A stretch of DNA of 53,717 bases from Candidatus Poseidoniaceae archaeon (lineage in GTDB: Archaea; Thermoplasmatota; Poseidoniia; Poseidoniales; Poseidoniaceae), in assembly GCA_028821785.1 (NCBI GenBank), contig JAPKFC010000003.1, positions 1 to 53,717 on the forward strand. The letters run 5' to 3'. How positions within the stretch are numbered: position 1 is the stretch's first letter; every line of letters starts with the position of its first letter. This document shows, piece after piece, positions 21,010 through 30,998 of the stretch. The translations under genes and the position numbers were made by a program. The notes under the pieces are model-generated. The model did no database searches. It saw only the letters and a program-made list of their open reading frames with translations, and was not told the origin of the DNA.

Positions 21010-22905
21010 ATGAGTAAAGTAATAGGAATTGATTTAGGAACTACGAATAGCTGTGTTGCAACGATAGAAAATGGTGACCCGGTCATCATTCCAAATGCTG
21101 AAGGTGCAAGAACGACTCCTTCGGTTGTAGCATTTGCAAAAGATGGTTCAGAACGACTTATCGGAGTTGTCGCAAAGCGCCAAGCGGTAACAAATCCAGA
21201 ACGAACTATCCTCTCTGTAAAAAGACATATGGGGACTGACTGGTCGACAAAAATTGATGATGCTGAGTACACACCTCAAGAAGTATCTGCATTTATCTTG
21301 CAAAAGTTGAAGGCTGATGCTGAAGCCTATTTGGGTACTGATGTTAAGCAAGCTGTCATCACATGCCCTGCATACTTTACCGATGCTCAAAGAAAAGCAA
21401 CTAAGGATGCTGGTAGAATTGCTGGTCTAGAAGTTCTAAGAATTATCAACGAGCCAACTGCTGCTGCATTGGCATATGGAGTGGACAAAGGAGATGAGGC
21501 AACTATTCTGGTTTACGATCTTGGTGGTGGAACATTCGATGTATCTATCCTAGAAATATACGAAGTTGATGGGCAACCACAAATTGAAGTTAAGGCAACC
21601 GCTGGAAATAACAAACTTGGTGGAGACGACTTTGATGACTTGGTCATTGGATGGTTAGTCGCTGAATTCAAGAAATCAACTGGAATTGACTTAAGCAAAG
21701 ATGTTCAAGCTCTATCACGCCTCAAGGAGGCTGCTGAAAAGGCAAAGATTGAACTTTCTGGTACTCAAACAACTCAAATTAATTTACCATTTGTCACAAT
21801 GAAGGATGGTCAACCAGAACATCTGGATATTACTTTGACCCGCGCTAAGTTTGAAGATTTAATCTCTAAGTTGATTGAAAAGACAATGCGTCCAACTCGC
21901 CAGGCTATGAAAGATGCTGGTGTGAAGAAAGGAGATGTTGACAAAGTAATTCTCGTAGGTGGTTCAACACGTGTACCTGCTGTTCAGACTGCTGTTGAAA
22001 AGGAAGCCGGTAAAGAGCCATACAAGGGAATTAACCCCGATGAAGCCGTTGCAATGGGTGCTGCTATACAAGCAGGAATTATTGCGGGTGATGAAGGTGT
22101 TTCCGACATATTACTGCTCGATGTAACGCCTCTAACACTTGGAATTGAAACTCTTGGTGGAGTAATGACCACAATGATTGAGCGCAATACAACAATTCCT
22201 TCACGACGCTCTGAGATCTATTCTACCGCTTCCGATAATCAACCTGCTGTAGAAATACATGTTTTGCAAGGTGAACGTGAATTCGCAAAGGACAATGTCA
22301 CACTTGGACAATTCCATCTCGGCGGTATTCCTGCTGCTCAGCGTGGCGTTCCTCAAATTGAAGTCACCTTTGACATAGATGCAAATGGAATCGTCAATGT
22401 TAGTGCAAAGGACATGGGTACTGGTAAGGAACAATCAGTTAAAATGGAATCTAACACCTCACTAAGCGAAGATGAAATCCAATCAAAGATTGAAGAGGCT
22501 GAAAGTTTTGCTGAGGAAGATAAAACTCGCAAAGCTAAGGTTGAACTTAGGAATATGGCAGACCAGGTAGTCTACCAAACCCGTCGCACCTTAGAAGAAA
22601 ATGCTGAGAAATTAGATGATGCTGATGTCGACCCTGTAAAGTCCCTATTGGACGAACTTGAAAAGATGGTTCAGGATGAAGAGGGCAAGCCTCTTGATCT
22701 AGATGATGTTGATGAAGCATCTATTCAGACCAAGGTAAAGGAAATTGAAGAAGCAATGCACGCTGTATCCTCTAAGTTATACGAGGCTGCTGCTGCTGAA
22801 ATGGCTGAACAAGAAGGTAATTCAGATACTGACGATGGCGATATCAACGTTGATGGTGACGATGCTGTCGTAGATGCTGATTTTGAAGTCGTTGACGAAG
22901 ATTGA
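21010..22905 (+). CDS. dnaK: Chaperone DnaK (Hsp70), short archaeal/Gram-positive type
   Basis: [26 protein letters not shown] and NPDEAVA; lacks the N-terminal diderm-type insert; acidic DADFEVVD tail. Confidence 0.98.
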
Positions 22906-23009
22906 TTGATTTCATCTACGAATATTGTGAAATAATTGCTAATCTTGTGATATTCTATTGATGAGATTAGAAGCGTTTGGCTTATTGATGAGTGGTTGGT
23001 GGCTTGTCT

Positions 23010-24602
23010 ATGAGCGATGCATCAATCCTCTCCGATACCGACCGAACCACCGGTCGCGATGCTCTGCGCAAGAATATTCAAGCTGCACTTGCATTGTCAG
23101 GTGCTATTCGCTCAACACTCGGTCCACGAGGTCTTGACAAATTGTTAATCGACGATACTGGACGAACCCTGACTACCAATGATGGAGTCACTGTTCTTGA
23201 AACTGCAAAGGTAGAACATCCTGTGGCAAAAATGCTAATCAATGCCTCATCTGTACAAGATAAAATTGCAAGAGATGGCACTACAACTACCGTGCTAATT
23301 AGTGCAGAAATGTTGAACAATGCTTGGCATCTTGTAACCCAAGGAGTTCACCCCTCAATGATTGCGCGTGGTTATCGCATGGCTGAAGAGTTCTGCCGAA
23401 CAGAATTACCAACTTTCACTATCGATGCTGCAAAAGAGGACCTATTAGTAGCAACCAAAACTGCACTTGCAGGGAAAAGTCATGAGGCAATGCGTGCACA
23501 TTTAGCCCGCATATCGGTTGAAGCTGCTGAAATTATTATCGACACTCGATCAGGTGTAACCATTGCCGACCCAACAAGAGTCAAGGTGCTTTCACAAAGT
23601 GGAGGCGTTGTTACTGATTCCCAATTGGTCACTGGATTAGTATTAGCAAAAAAGCGAATACTTGAAGCAATGCCGAAGAAAATTGGAGCCGGTAAAGTTC
23701 TTTTGATAAACGGTGGAATTGAGAGGCGCTCTATGGCATCTGAAATGAAACTAAAGGTAACATCTCCTGGTATTCTTCAATCCTTTAGAGATAAGGAAAT
23801 CGAAATGTTGATGCAACAGGTCAAGCATTTACAATCTCTTGGTGTTACTTTATTAGCCTGCAAAGAAGGAATTGATGATGATATACGCTCTGCACTAAAC
23901 GAAGCCGGCATTCAAGCATTTAGAAGAGTCGCTAGAGAAGATTTAGATTTACTCGCCAGAGGTTGTGGGGCCACATTATTATATGATGTAAAAGGGGCAA
24001 CTGCTAGTGATTTAGGTGTCTTTATTGAATCAAGAAATGAAATGTGGAATGGTGTAGCGCACTGGATTGTAGACACTGAAGAAGGCGGTGCGACTTTCAT
24101 TGCCCGCGGTTCAACTACTGATGTATTGGGAGAAGTTGAGAGATGCTTTGCTGATGCACTTGGTGTTGCATGCCAATTATTAGAAGAACCTTTGTTATTG
24201 GCTGGTGGAGGTGCTACACAAGTTGCTTTAGCAAGAAAACTAAGAAGATATGCTGAAACAATTCCTGGTAGAGAACAATTGGCGGTTGAAGCCTTCGCTG
24301 ATGCATTGGAGATTATTCCAAGAGTACTCGCAGAAAATGCTGGATTAGATCCAATCAACACTTTACTGGAAGTTGTTGCTTCTCAAAGTAACGCAAATGA
24401 TGATGTCTCGCATCACTTTGGATTGGATGTAAACACAAGATCGCCTGCTAATATGATTGAAAACGGTGTCCTTGAACCTCTAAGGATTACACGACAAGCA
24501 ATTAGTGGTGCTACTGAAGCAGCCGTTTCGATTCTTCGTATAGATGATGTGTTGTGGGCAAAGGCTGATGCAACGGCACCAGACTTGCCAGATATGGATT
24601 AA
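23010..24602 (+). CDS. Thermosome (group II chaperonin) subunit, divergent
   Basis: TLGPRGLDK, TNDG, RDGTTT, ADALG, GGGA and LRIDD motifs; start moved to MSDAS (23010). Confidence 0.9.
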   Translation: MSDASILSDTDRTTGRDALRKNIQAALALSGAIRSTLGPRGLDKLLIDDTGRTLTTNDGVTVLETAKVEHPVAKMLINASSVQDKIARDGTTTTVLISAEMLNNAWHLVTQGVHPSMIARGYRMAEEFCRTELPTFTIDAAKEDLLVATKTALAGKSHEAMRAHLARISVEAAEIIIDTRSGVTIADPTRVKVLSQSGGVVTDSQLVTGLVLAKKRILEAMPKKIGAGKVLLINGGIERRSMASEMKLKVTSPGILQSFRDKEIEMLMQQVKHLQSLGVTLLACKEGIDDDIRSALNEAGIQAFRRVAREDLDLLARGCGATLLYDVKGATASDLGVFIESRNEMWNGVAHWIVDTEEGGATFIARGSTTDVLGEVERCFADALGVACQLLEEPLLLAGGGATQVALARKLRRYAETIPGREQLAVEAFADALEIIPRVLAENAGLDPINTLLEVVASQSNANDDVSHHFGLDVNTRSPANMIENGVLEPLRITRQAISGATEAAVSILRIDDVLWAKADATAPDLPDMD

Positions 24603-27315: not shown

Positions 27316-27500
27316 TGCGCTCCCCTAAATCTTCTTTAGAGACGCCGCCTTTTGATTATTGGCTTGCTCTATGTCAATTTTCATGATGTGCTATGTAAAA
27401 TAATTAACAAAATATTGCCAATTTTGCCAATTTTGGAATTGGGATGACTGAGGGTATGTTGATTAAGGAGGCGCGACAGCCTCAAAACCCGTTGATGTCA

Positions 27501-29129
27501 ATGAAATACGTCGTGGTCAGCGGAGGTGTCCTTTCCGGATTAGGTAAAGGAGTGACTGCCAGCAGCATTGGAGTATTACTCAAATCCGCTGGACTGCGAG
27601 TCACTTCAATAAAAATTGACCCATATCTAAACAGCGATGCTGGAACTATGTCGCCGTTTGAACATGGAGAGGTTTTCGTTTTAGATGATGGCGGCGAAGC
27701 AGATTTAGATCTCGGTAATTATGAGAGATTCTTAGATATCAATTTAGCCAAGGACAATAATTTGACAACTGGAAAAGTATATTCTAAGGTAATTGAAGCT
27801 GAACGTCGTGGAGACTATCTTGGAAAAACAGTACAAGTAATTCCACATATTACCGATGCGGTAATGGAATGGATTGAAGATGTTGCTAGCAAACCTGCAG
27901 ATGGTTCAGATCAAACGCCTGATGCTTGTATTATCGAATTAGGTGGAACTGTTGGTGATATTGAATCTTCACCATATATCGAAGCATTAAGGCAATTTCA
28001 ATTTAGAGTCGGAAGAGAGAATGTAACTTTCGTTCACGTTTCATTAGTTCCGGTAATGGGACCTGTTGGTGAGCAAAAAACTAAGCCGACACAGCATACT
28101 GTCAAAGAGTTAAGAGGTCTAGGAATTTCGCCAGACATCCTAGTTTGTAGGTCCACCTCGCCTTTGAACCTTGAAACTCGGGAAAAGTTGGCTGCATTTT
28201 GCCACGTTAGCCCAGATGCAGTATTCTCAACACACGACGTTCCGAATATCTATCATGTTCCTCTAATGCTGCAAGAACAAGGTTTGTGCAATATCCTCGG
28301 AGTCGATTGTGAATCTACCGGATTATTGGCTGAATGGAGAAAGATGGCTTTACACCTAGACACACTGGTGGAGGAAATAACAATCGCAATGGTTGGAAAA
28401 TATACTGGTTTGAGCGATGCATATCTTTCTGTCATCAAATCTTTACAACACGCTGCAATGGCAGTTGACAGAAAATTGGTTATCGATTGGGTTGAAGCAT
28501 CACATCTGGAAGATGGTTGGTCGGATGCTGAAGAATCTGCAAGTGCATGGCAGATGCTGAAGGGTGCTGATGGAATATTGGTCCCAGGTGGCTTTGGCGA
28601 TAGAGGAATAGAAGGAAAAATAATCGCCGCTAATTATTCTAGAATTAACAATGTCCCGTACTTAGGAATTTGTCTGGGATTACAAGTTGCAACTATTGAG
28701 TTCTGCCGTAACGTCTTAGGACTCACAGGTGCGAACTCAACTGAATTTGACGAAAGTGTTGAACATGCAGCAGTTGTATTCATGCCAGAAATTTCAAAGA
28801 CACATTTAGGTGGAACAATGCGACTAGGAAGCCGTCCAACAGTATGGCAAGTCGATGAATGTAAAATTAGAACACTATATGGAGAAGGTGATTCTGTAGA
28901 TGAAAGACATCGTCACAGATACGAAGTAAACCCAGATCTGATTGAACAGATTGAAGCTGCTGGTCTGAAGTTTGTCGGTAAGGATGAGACTGGACAACGT
29001 TGTGAGATTTTTGAACTAGAAGGCCATCCATATTTCGTAGGAGTTCAATACCATCCAGAATTCAAGAGTAGACCTAATCGCCCATCTCCTCCATTTTTGG
29101 GATTACTCCAAGCGGCTACTAAAAAGTGA
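27501..29129 (+). CDS. pyrG: CTP synthase
   Basis: [51 protein letters not shown] and QYHPEF motifs; start moved to MKYVVV (27501). Confidence 0.97.
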
Positions 29130-29290: not shown

Positions 29291-30490
29291 TCATTGTGCA
29301 ATTCTAATCAGCCTCGTAGTGCGGAAGCCTTGTAAGATTTTGATGAATCTCTTTTCGTGAAACATCTCGTCAAGTGTTGTATCGCCAGTATCTATTCTAA
29401 TATTGGATAAACCAATCAATTTACTCGGAGTTGCAACACCAAGAATATTTTCAATTCCAATTTCCCTAAGAACATCTGGTGAAAGTTGTAAATTGCCTCT
29501 GCCGATTAGGAATCCTTGGCCACCCATGGGTGAAAGAAGTAACAATATTGGCTTGGTTTGGCCATTAGAATCGCTGTGCTTTTCTATTATTTCCAACAAT
29601 CCTTGCTCATTCAAATCAAGATCAAGGATGCGCTTATTTCCACCGTCGGGTGAAGGTGATTCTACATCTATTCCAAGAAGAGTCAATTCATGGCCACAGT
29701 GTTTACCCATACGGTTCAAAGTTCCACCACTGCCCCATACTATCATCAAATCATTATTATCTGCAACTAATGTTTTGATATGTTCCGCAAGTGCTTCAAT
29801 AGTATCTTCCTCGCTTGCACGTTCAACCTGCTCTTTGGCTCCTTGCATAAATCGAGGACTACTTGGAGTCCATGCTTCACCATACATACGAACTTTCCAA
29901 ACACCGGTTTGGTAGACCTCTTCATCCAAATCCATAACCTCTGTAATTCCAGTTCTTAAATCACCTAAATGGTAGGCTAAAACAACTTCTGCAGCTGCTT
30001 TAGGAGTTGTAGCAAAACAACCACTATGCATTTTCACTCCGCCTGGAACTCCAACGATTGCTGTTTTGGAAGCAGATTTACCGTTTATTTCACCGATGTT
30101 CTCAAGCGCTTTAACAATATCACGAGTAGTTCCATCTCCTCCTGCATAGAGAAGTAGATCAACTTCTGAATCAATTAATTGCTTTACTAGTAAAGTTGTA
30201 TCCTGTGCAGAAGTTGACTGAGGTGAATCTCCAATAATCGTAACAGGTGTTTTATCCATCCAAGAAGAACCCATTGCTCCTGACCAACAAATGAATTCAA
30301 TTTTTTCTCCTTGGCGATTAAGACTGCTGTCAAGAAGTTGGCTTAACTTCTCCACGCATTGCTGCATTCTTGGCCCTGACCTATCTTGGGCGCCAGCAGC
30401 CCTTGCTTCTTCGGCCCTCCCATCGCTTCCCTTGAAGCCCAAGCGACCGCCTAGGCCGGCATCTGGATTGACGATGATGCCGACTCGCAT
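29291..30490 (-). CDS. ATP-NAD kinase-like / AcoX family protein
   Basis: IVNPDAGLGGRLGFKGSDG, GGDGTTRD, GVKMHSG and GQGFLIGRGNLQLS motifs. Confidence 0.8.
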   Translation of the reverse strand: MRVGIIVNPDAGLGGRLGFKGSDGRAEEARAAGAQDRSGPRMQQCVEKLSQLLDSSLNRQGEKIEFICWSGAMGSSWMDKTPVTIIGDSPQSTSAQDTTLLVKQLIDSEVDLLLYAGGDGTTRDIVKALENIGEINGKSASKTAIVGVPGGVKMHSGCFATTPKAAAEVVLAYHLGDLRTGITEVMDLDEEVYQTGVWKVRMYGEAWTPSSPRFMQGAKEQVERASEEDTIEALAEHIKTLVADNNDLMIVWGSGGTLNRMGKHCGHELTLLGIDVESPSPDGGNKRILDLDLNEQGLLEIIEKHSDSNGQTKPILLLLSPMGGQGFLIGRGNLQLSPDVLREIGIENILGVATPSKLIGLSNIRIDTGDTTLDEMFHEKRFIKILQGFRTTRLIRIAQ

Positions 30491-30596
30491 AGCACTGCCA
30501 CCTGCTCAACATTCATCAATGTGCGGAGAAAAAATATTACCGATAATCAAGACAATTATCAACAATCTTGATTTGATATCATTTCCTAGCCCAACT

Positions 30597-30998
30597 ATGC
30601 GAAGTAATGATGACACTATTCCAAACCTAGAGGATGCGGTTTCTGGAGGCTTCTCGGAATTCAAAATCGGTGAAAAGAAATTTAAAGAATCTGAGCAAAA
30701 GAAAGAGGAAACAATTGAACACTCTGCTGTAGAAACTAATCCTATTGAAAAATCAGAACCGAAGTATGGTTACAAAATTGATGCAGTCGAATCTAGACAA
30801 TCATTCGTAGTAAAGCCCAATTCTGCCACAATGGAAACAAAACAAGGTCTTGAGATTACCAGTCCTGCGGAAGAAGAACGAATCGCTCAGGAAAAGGCTC
30901 GGCTAGAAGCCCTAGCACAACAACCGCAAAAGCCTCAACAAGAAGTCAAAGATAAGCCATCTTCAACGATCGGTGATGAATTTGATGTAGCGTGGTAA
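30597..30998 (+). CDS. Hypothetical charged, probably disordered protein
   Basis: Track ORF 30291 overlaps the divergent gene; the plausible start is MRSNDD at 30597 (in frame). Lys/Glu-rich, ends DEFDVAW. Confidence 0.6.
   Translation: MRSNDDTIPNLEDAVSGGFSEFKIGEKKFKESEQKKEETIEHSAVETNPIEKSEPKYGYKIDAVESRQSFVVKPNSATMETKQGLEITSPAEEERIAQEKARLEALAQQPQKPQQEVKDKPSSTIGDEFDVAW

Follow-up and report, generated by a model that had tools for sequence, protein, structure and literature searches.

A eukaryote-type CTP synthase across the archaeal order Poseidoniales

A link between the CTP synthase (CTPS, PyrG) of planktonic archaea and eukaryotes has been recorded before: a table of Deschamps et al. 2014 (Genome Biol Evol, PMC4122925, Cluster_Details.xls) lists the GII/III-euryarchaeal CTP synthase as 'Specific core - early HGT: Eukaryota', and the main text of that study attributes a very minor fraction of the transferred genes to eukaryotes (PMC4122925). 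For the eukaryotic enzyme itself, an archaeal affinity that few metabolic genes share has been described (Rochette et al. 2014, PMC3969559). Eukaryotic CTPS carries an alpha-helical insert that is part of the filament-assembly interface (Hansen et al. 2021, PMC8641951), and human His355 is needed for filament assembly in animals and yeast (PMC8641951). In the main text of the searchable literature, 'CTP synthase' was not found together with MGII terms. The basic claim has been on record since 2014; what we add here is its confirmation, a sharper distribution and a statement of the points that are unsettled.

The window analyzed here is a stretch of 53,717 nucleotides from contig JAPKFC010000003.1 of a Candidatus Poseidoniaceae archaeon (order Poseidoniales, MGII; assembly GCA_028821785.1). 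The gene and its domains are the following.

27501 to 29129, plus strand: pyrG/CTPS coding sequence, 542 codons plus stop, intron-less.
27504 to 28298, plus strand: N-terminal amidoligase (synthetase) domain, residues 2-266 (Pfam PF06418 CTP_synth_N, 2.5e-122).
28413 to 29111, plus strand: C-terminal class-I glutamine amidotransferase (GATase) domain, residues 305-537 (PF00117, 1.1e-38).

The protein read from the ATG at 27501 (P0001) has 542 amino acids and scored 763 bits against the TIGR00337 PyrG equivalog (cut-off 462.75) over model positions 3-526 of 526. The P-loop GKG is located at residues 15-17, within the amidoligase domain, and C391, H518 and E520 form the Cys-His-Glu triad. These three residues are invariant in an alignment of 60 sequences from bacteria, archaea and eukaryotes, as are K16 (the P-loop lysine), D70 and E146 (85 invariant columns in all). 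Judged by homology, which is beyond chance, 27501-29129 is predicted to encode an intact glutamine-hydrolysing CTP synthase (PyrG/CTPS, EC 6.3.4.2), which would convert UTP to CTP with ATP and glutamine. The 1.82-Mb assembly has one pyrG copy, with no second pyrG found; its standing as the sole CTP synthase there argues that P0001 is functional and is the working enzyme of the cell.

The frame is open from 27444 to 29129 (plus strand), and its conserved start, the ATG at 27501, coincides with the coordinates of the first-pass annotation. This start was fixed by aligning ten Poseidoniaceae loci, in which homologues begin at the same MKY (one genus has TTG there). An upstream ATG at 27444, which would add a 57-nt in-frame extension, was ruled out as the coding start because homologues have frame-breaking indels in that stretch. 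The sequence preceding the start is itself conserved.

27455 to 27500, plus strand: non-coding leader of about 45 nt directly 5' of the pyrG start, kept in at least four Poseidoniaceae genera.

Across its homologues (stretches in L004, L007, L012-L014, L019, L020, L022 and L023), 28 columns of this leader are invariant, the indels measure 1 and 2 nt, and the core is GGCGCGACGGCCTAAAAGCCCGTTGATG. Folding of the leader gave a weak hairpin alone, covariation was not found, and there was no Rfam match. The stretch could be a regulatory leader of pyrG. A different arrangement was observed in one genus of Poseidoniaceae (g5; e.g., G271, G305, G326, G444 and G513), where the pyrG-containing frame is ~980-1000 aa long against the usual ~550-580 aa, which suggests an in-frame upstream gene or a fusion.

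The contig was checked for chimerism, as the first-pass annotation had advised, and is not chimeric. On one side, pyrG is accompanied by genes for DnaK, a thermosome subunit, HMG-CoA synthase and a zinc dehydrogenase, and on the other by NAD kinase, thrS and pyrB. The dnaK-thermosome-...-pyrG arrangement was found again in an MGIIb genome (L163), and a sister-order genome has an archaeal-type pyrG among unrelated genes. G+C content is flat over the window, at about 0.41, and the GC3 of pyrG (0.298) matches that of its neighbors (0.29-0.36). Two further features of the neighborhood were observed. At 21010-24602 (plus strand), an Hsp70/DnaK gene lies directly upstream of the archaeal thermosome subunit, and the same pair precedes pyrG in L163. 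At 30291-30998 (plus strand), a low-complexity acidic ORF of 235 aa ending in ...GDEFDVAW overlaps the opposite-strand 5' end of the NAD-kinase-like gene, and because of this overlap it may not be a real gene.

Similarity searches placed P0001 closer to eukaryotic than to prokaryotic enzymes. Among solved structures, the eukaryotic ones scored highest (human CTPS1 723 bits, Drosophila 707, CTPS2 704 and yeast 667-689), against 559 bits for Thermus, 521 for E. coli, 513 for Sulfolobus and 498 for M. tuberculosis. Identity to P0001 was 63-67% in Viridiplantae, 59-62% in stramenopiles and 58-61% in opisthokonts, compared with 54.5-58% in other Thermoplasmatota, 51-54% in other archaea and 48-52% in bacteria; in a search of 200 Thermoplasmatota genomes, none beyond Poseidoniales exceeded 59% identity or 658 bits. 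When 1.84 billion cluster representatives (50%-identity clusters) were searched exhaustively, the best matches, which were eukaryotic, reached 62% and 60% identity. One fungus and one nematode were named among the best representatives, with Cercozoa, ascomycetes, Babesia and a EukProt transcript among further ones. By its sequence, the Poseidoniales CTPS is a eukaryote-type enzyme.

One further lineage enters these comparisons. X565 comprises two proteins of 565 aa (P0335 and P0363; 82% identical to each other) that branch next to the MGII clade as a whole, as its closest sister (100/99), and P0335 is encoded on a 3.0-Mb ENA contig. The genome and metagenome matches listed for P0335 are all MGII, and none exceeds ~71-72% identity, so that no closer relative of X565 was found among them; nor was the X565 lineage found in a class-wide search of 401 genomes. 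Viral sequences were also considered. A viral transfer route gained no support, the CTPS of Nucleocytoviricota MAGs being too distant (40-53% identity to the MGII enzyme). Several of the giant-virus MAG contigs from IMG/VR (L153-L160) encode full-length CTP synthases, with no vector candidate among them.

The first-pass annotation had drawn attention to segments of the protein which resembled the eukaryotic signature better than the archaeal or bacterial one. The three peptides it quoted were all found in P0001, at residues 162-174, 202-212 and 425-443.

27984 to 28022, plus strand: first quoted segment, residues 162-174, 13 aa.
28104 to 28136, plus strand: second quoted segment, residues 202-212, 11 aa.
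28773 to 28829, plus strand: third quoted segment, residues 425-443, 19 aa.

This comparison holds in group consensus rows. RQFQFRVG is present in MGII, the X565 pair and the eukaryote groups (RQFxFRVG in Viridiplantae), and other Thermoplasmatota have RQLxxExG. Similarly, other Thermoplasmatota have an LLPEQxxVxxxGGTMRLG loop, where MGII and Viridiplantae share an FMPE.S.- pattern instead. Profiles built from eukaryotes and from 38 separate representatives both gave MGII the top scores; the search with the latter returned MGII proteins only, and MGII lies near the family consensus. The CTPS of MGII and of Viridiplantae are both short-branch and slow-evolving. Because of these short branches, and because both profiles score MGII highest, part of the affinity between MGII and Viridiplantae could reflect shared slow evolution. 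A strict site-pattern count over four groups left too few informative sites.

Insertions and a deletion follow the same division. Two of the insertions were delimited in the group consensus alignment.

27888 to 27905, plus strand: insert 1, SKPADG, residues 130-135.
28527 to 28550, plus strand: insert 2, residues 343-350, in the glutaminase domain.

Insert 1 (six residues, xxPxDG) is common to MGII, X565 and all eukaryote groups, and insert 2 (eight to ten residues) to MGII and all eukaryote groups; neither is present in other Thermoplasmatota or other prokaryotes. MGII and eukaryotes also have in common a one-residue deletion in the FMPE loop (the third segment) and an extra residue near position 466, both likewise absent from other Thermoplasmatota and prokaryotes. 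By alignment, insert 2 corresponds to the alpha-helical insert that eukaryotic CTPS has at the filament interface, with two residues fewer in MGII than in plants and animals. The position of human H355 is an Ala in P0001 and is variable in the MGII and Viridiplantae consensus. Additionally, MGII proteins stop a few residues past the glutaminase domain and are missing the GQL... C-terminal extension, which is present in Viridiplantae, stramenopiles, opisthokonts and X565. Four metagenomic CTP synthases of 544-553 aa (P0130, P0149, P0165 and P0174) were observed to have insert 1 and to lack insert 2, and in one tree this group is sister of the eukaryote-type clade. They are possibly an intermediate lineage, and an Asgard affiliation would be a guess.

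The distribution of the enzyme was examined in 401 genomes of the class Poseidoniia, with X565 as the probe. Eukaryote-type CTPS was found in 338 of 355 Poseidoniales genomes and in every sampled family of this one order (181/188 in f1, the family of the window; 156/166 in f2; 1/1 in f48). These matches were 66-72% identical to the probe, with E values of ~1e-245 to 1e-275 for the great majority and down to 1e-6 for a minority. The remaining orders of the class matched in 43 of 45 genomes (41/43 in f3 and 2/2 in f49), at E values of ~1e-180 to 1e-190 and 54-55% identity, and their enzyme is of the ordinary archaeal type. These orders are presumably marine group III. A check across MGII and the other orders, which the first-pass annotation had called for, hence separates a eukaryote type in Poseidoniales from an archaeal type in its sister orders. 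Given this distribution of types across the class, acquisition is placed after the lineage had split from the sister order and before the Poseidoniales crown. By a published clock, Poseidoniaceae and Thalassarchaeaceae parted at ~1.1 Ga (PMC10877094), an age that a stem or early donor of the green lineage would fit.

Phylogenies were computed with FastTree from 276 sequences and with IQ-TREE under LG+C20+F+G4 PMSF from a 98-row set and a 60-row short-branch set. No named Asgard, TACK or DPANN PyrG is included in these trees, nor are named red algae, glaucophytes, haptophytes, cryptophytes or excavates, and many of the eukaryote-like rows are labelled solely through clustering with named rows. 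In the FastTree phylogeny, 70 MGII proteins (including named Poseidoniales and Thalassarchaeaceae entries) and the X565 pair are sister to Viridiplantae, followed by stramenopiles, with opisthokonts deeper; the eukaryote-type clade has a support of 0.999. The 98-row tree recovers MGII monophyly (99/92), MGII with X565 (100/99) and MGII, X565 and Viridiplantae together (100/98). MGII and every named eukaryote fall in a 98/94 clade, and the enclosing clade (100/100) stands apart from other Thermoplasmatota and Nitrososphaeraceae. The outgroup of this tree attaches via a long-branch group, a known artefact risk.

In the 60-row tree (outgroups Campylobacter, Gaiellales, Clostridia, Methanomicrobia, Thermococci and Methanofastidiosia), the eukaryote-type clade has 100/100 support, and its stem measures 0.56 substitutions per site. 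The outgroup attaches at a trichotomy whose branches are Opisthokonta, stramenopiles with others, and Viridiplantae with (X565 plus MGII), this third branch at 88/82, and the root position fits the accepted Amorphea-Diaphoretickes split. The sister-order sequences join other Thermoplasmatota (80/86 to 88/91), and the eukaryote-type clade emerges from an unresolved node among Thermoplasmatota. Constrained alternatives were compared with the ML trees by AU tests, with the following results.

Eukaryotes monophyletic with MGII outside (98 rows, full mixture): delta lnL 12.2, p-AU 0.363.
Eukaryotes monophyletic with MGII outside (60 rows, full mixture): delta lnL 2.8, p-AU 0.396.
Eukaryotes monophyletic with MGII outside (60 rows, PMSF): delta lnL 4.05, p-AU 0.34 in the two-tree and 0.51 in the four-tree comparison.
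The same, with Viridiplantae, stramenopiles and Cercozoa (Diaphoretickes) held together (60 rows, PMSF): delta lnL 12.7, p-AU 0.215.
Eukaryote-type clade with the sister orders, i.e., vertical descent (60 rows, PMSF): delta lnL 17.7, p-AU 0.122 in the two-tree and 0.155 in the four-tree comparison.

No alternative topology was rejected by the AU tests in the 60- and 98-row sets. The Diaphoretickes-constrained search ran for 50 iterations with a stable best score. In the constrained 98-row tree, the long outgroup branch shifts onto the MGII stem and Viridiplantae become the first-branching eukaryotes. A robust placement of the MGII enzyme inside Thermoplasmatota PyrG, the outcome that would have spoken against the first-pass annotation, did not occur, and the clade lies apart from 38 other Thermoplasmatota, sister orders included. 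The plant/algal affinity noted there also stood, the best ML position of MGII being sister to Viridiplantae. The annotation had further proposed transfer from a eukaryote or, alternatively, a lineage near the source of the eukaryotic enzyme. The eukaryote-type clade and the indels bear out this pair of origins, but the AU tests do not separate one from the other.

An ancestor of Poseidoniales probably took up a eukaryotic CTPS, likely from the green lineage, which replaced the native archaeal pyrG. We infer both the donor and the direction of this transfer, and also that a replacement took place: an ancestor of the whole order would have acquired the CTPS gene from a eukaryote that most likely was either an early green-lineage organism or a near relative of that lineage (planktonic algae), and the acquired gene would have displaced the native archaeal pyrG. 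Vertical inheritance in all MGII families would have followed, with later changes in which the eukaryotic C-terminal tail was lost, the filament-interface insert was shortened and host codon usage was adopted. We rank transfer from the green lineage first because it is the ML arrangement in both sets under a site-heterogeneous model, agrees with the orthodox eukaryote root and accounts for the loop shared with Viridiplantae. It is unlikely, in our judgement, that the MGII CTPS (with X565) is instead the sister of all eukaryotic CTPS, its ancestor predating LECA and the gene having passed, in either direction, between a eukaryote-stem or Asgard-like lineage and the Poseidoniales stem. That topology is left standing by the AU tests at small likelihood differences, and the constrained tree merely moves the long outgroup branch to the MGII stem. 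The attachment of the 98-row outgroup through a long-branch group and the closeness of MGII sequences to the family consensus point the same way, and this reading deserves attention given the archaea-related character reported for the eukaryotic enzyme (Rochette et al. 2014, PMC3969559). However, it is the ML topology in neither data set, and it would make Viridiplantae branch first among eukaryotes, contrary to the accepted tree; holding Viridiplantae, stramenopiles and Cercozoa together costs a delta lnL of 12.7. Moreover, the loop pattern S.- is common to MGII and Viridiplantae specifically, and the gene would still be foreign to Thermoplasmatota unless eukaryotes took their CTPS from them. 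We consider it rather doubtful that, among prokaryotic enzymes, the Poseidoniales one stands as nearest sister to the whole of eukaryotic CTPS, rather than deriving from crown eukaryotes, through a pre-LECA exchange, at the extreme with a non-Asgard archaeal pool having supplied eukaryotes.

A purely vertical history in Poseidoniia, with fast change and the gain of both inserts on the MGII stem and with eukaryotes receiving their CTPS from that lineage, seems very improbable. The tree that unites the eukaryote-type clade with sister-order sequences (L054 and L055) does survive at a delta lnL of 17.7 (p-AU 0.12-0.155), and the unresolved node in the 60-row tree from which the clade emerges is among Thermoplasmatota. 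Against this, the topology has the worst likelihood of the four tested, and the sister-order sequences join other Thermoplasmatota with the 80/86 to 88/91 support given above. Vertical descent also demands a Thermoplasmatota origin of a eukaryotic core enzyme, as well as a rooting with monophyletic eukaryotes. Finally, an artefact of binning or assembly, by which a piece of eukaryotic DNA would have ended up in an archaeal contig, has next to no probability. The gene lies mid-contig amid archaeal housekeeping genes, with uniform composition and GC3 and with no introns, and the same gene recurs in the 338 of 355 Poseidoniales genomes, single-contig assemblies among them, in a conserved neighborhood and with no second pyrG. 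Distribution and context refute the artefact.

Eukaryote-to-archaeon replacement of an essential, single-copy housekeeping enzyme that became fixed in a globally abundant order would be a rare event. Given the ~1.1 Ga family split (PMC10877094), it would also set a tie between MGII and algae deep in time, and it would amount to a natural experiment in which a eukaryotic CTPS with the cytoophidium-filament insert has worked for about a billion years in the cytoplasm of archaea. Were the MGII enzyme instead the sister of all eukaryotic CTPS, the gene would bear on the origin of one of the few archaea-related metabolic enzymes that eukaryotes have.

The record closest to ours is that of Deschamps et al. 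2014, which concerns the same gene in the same archaeal group and the same early acquisition from eukaryotes into the core of the lineage; KM3_66_F08 of its fosmid set matches P0307 of the MGII clade. That record is one line in the table of an automated pipeline, is undiscussed in the paper and pools groups II and III (PMC4122925), and it comes without a donor lineage, indels or topology tests (PMC4122925). In the present analysis, by comparison, the eukaryote type is found in Poseidoniales alone, the remaining orders of the class carry the archaeal one, and the AU tests leave more than one direction of transfer standing.

Among known enzymes, the CTPS of Viridiplantae (Closterium P0339, Tetraselmis P0328 and Riccia P0354) are the nearest named relatives, at 63-67% identity and as ML sister, and like MGII they have both inserts and the FMPE.S.- loop. 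They differ in keeping a C-terminal tail (GQL..YL..., at least ~17 residues) and in a filament insert that exceeds the MGII one by two residues, and the MGII gene, unlike plant and algal ones, is intron-less and has archaeal codon usage. Human CTPS1 and CTPS2 and the Drosophila and yeast enzymes (PDB 7MIP, 5U03, 6PK4, 7DPT and 7RKH) align with P0001 over the full length (667-723 bits) and share with it the two-domain architecture, the catalytic residues and the helical insert, whereas MGII has Ala in place of His355 and no phosphorylated C-terminal tail. Ordinary Thermoplasmatota PyrG, including that of the sister orders within Poseidoniia, resembles the MGII enzyme in function and two-domain architecture at 54-59% identity, but neither insert is present in it, its LLPEQ loop is longer, it carries RQLxxExG, and it belongs to a separate clade.
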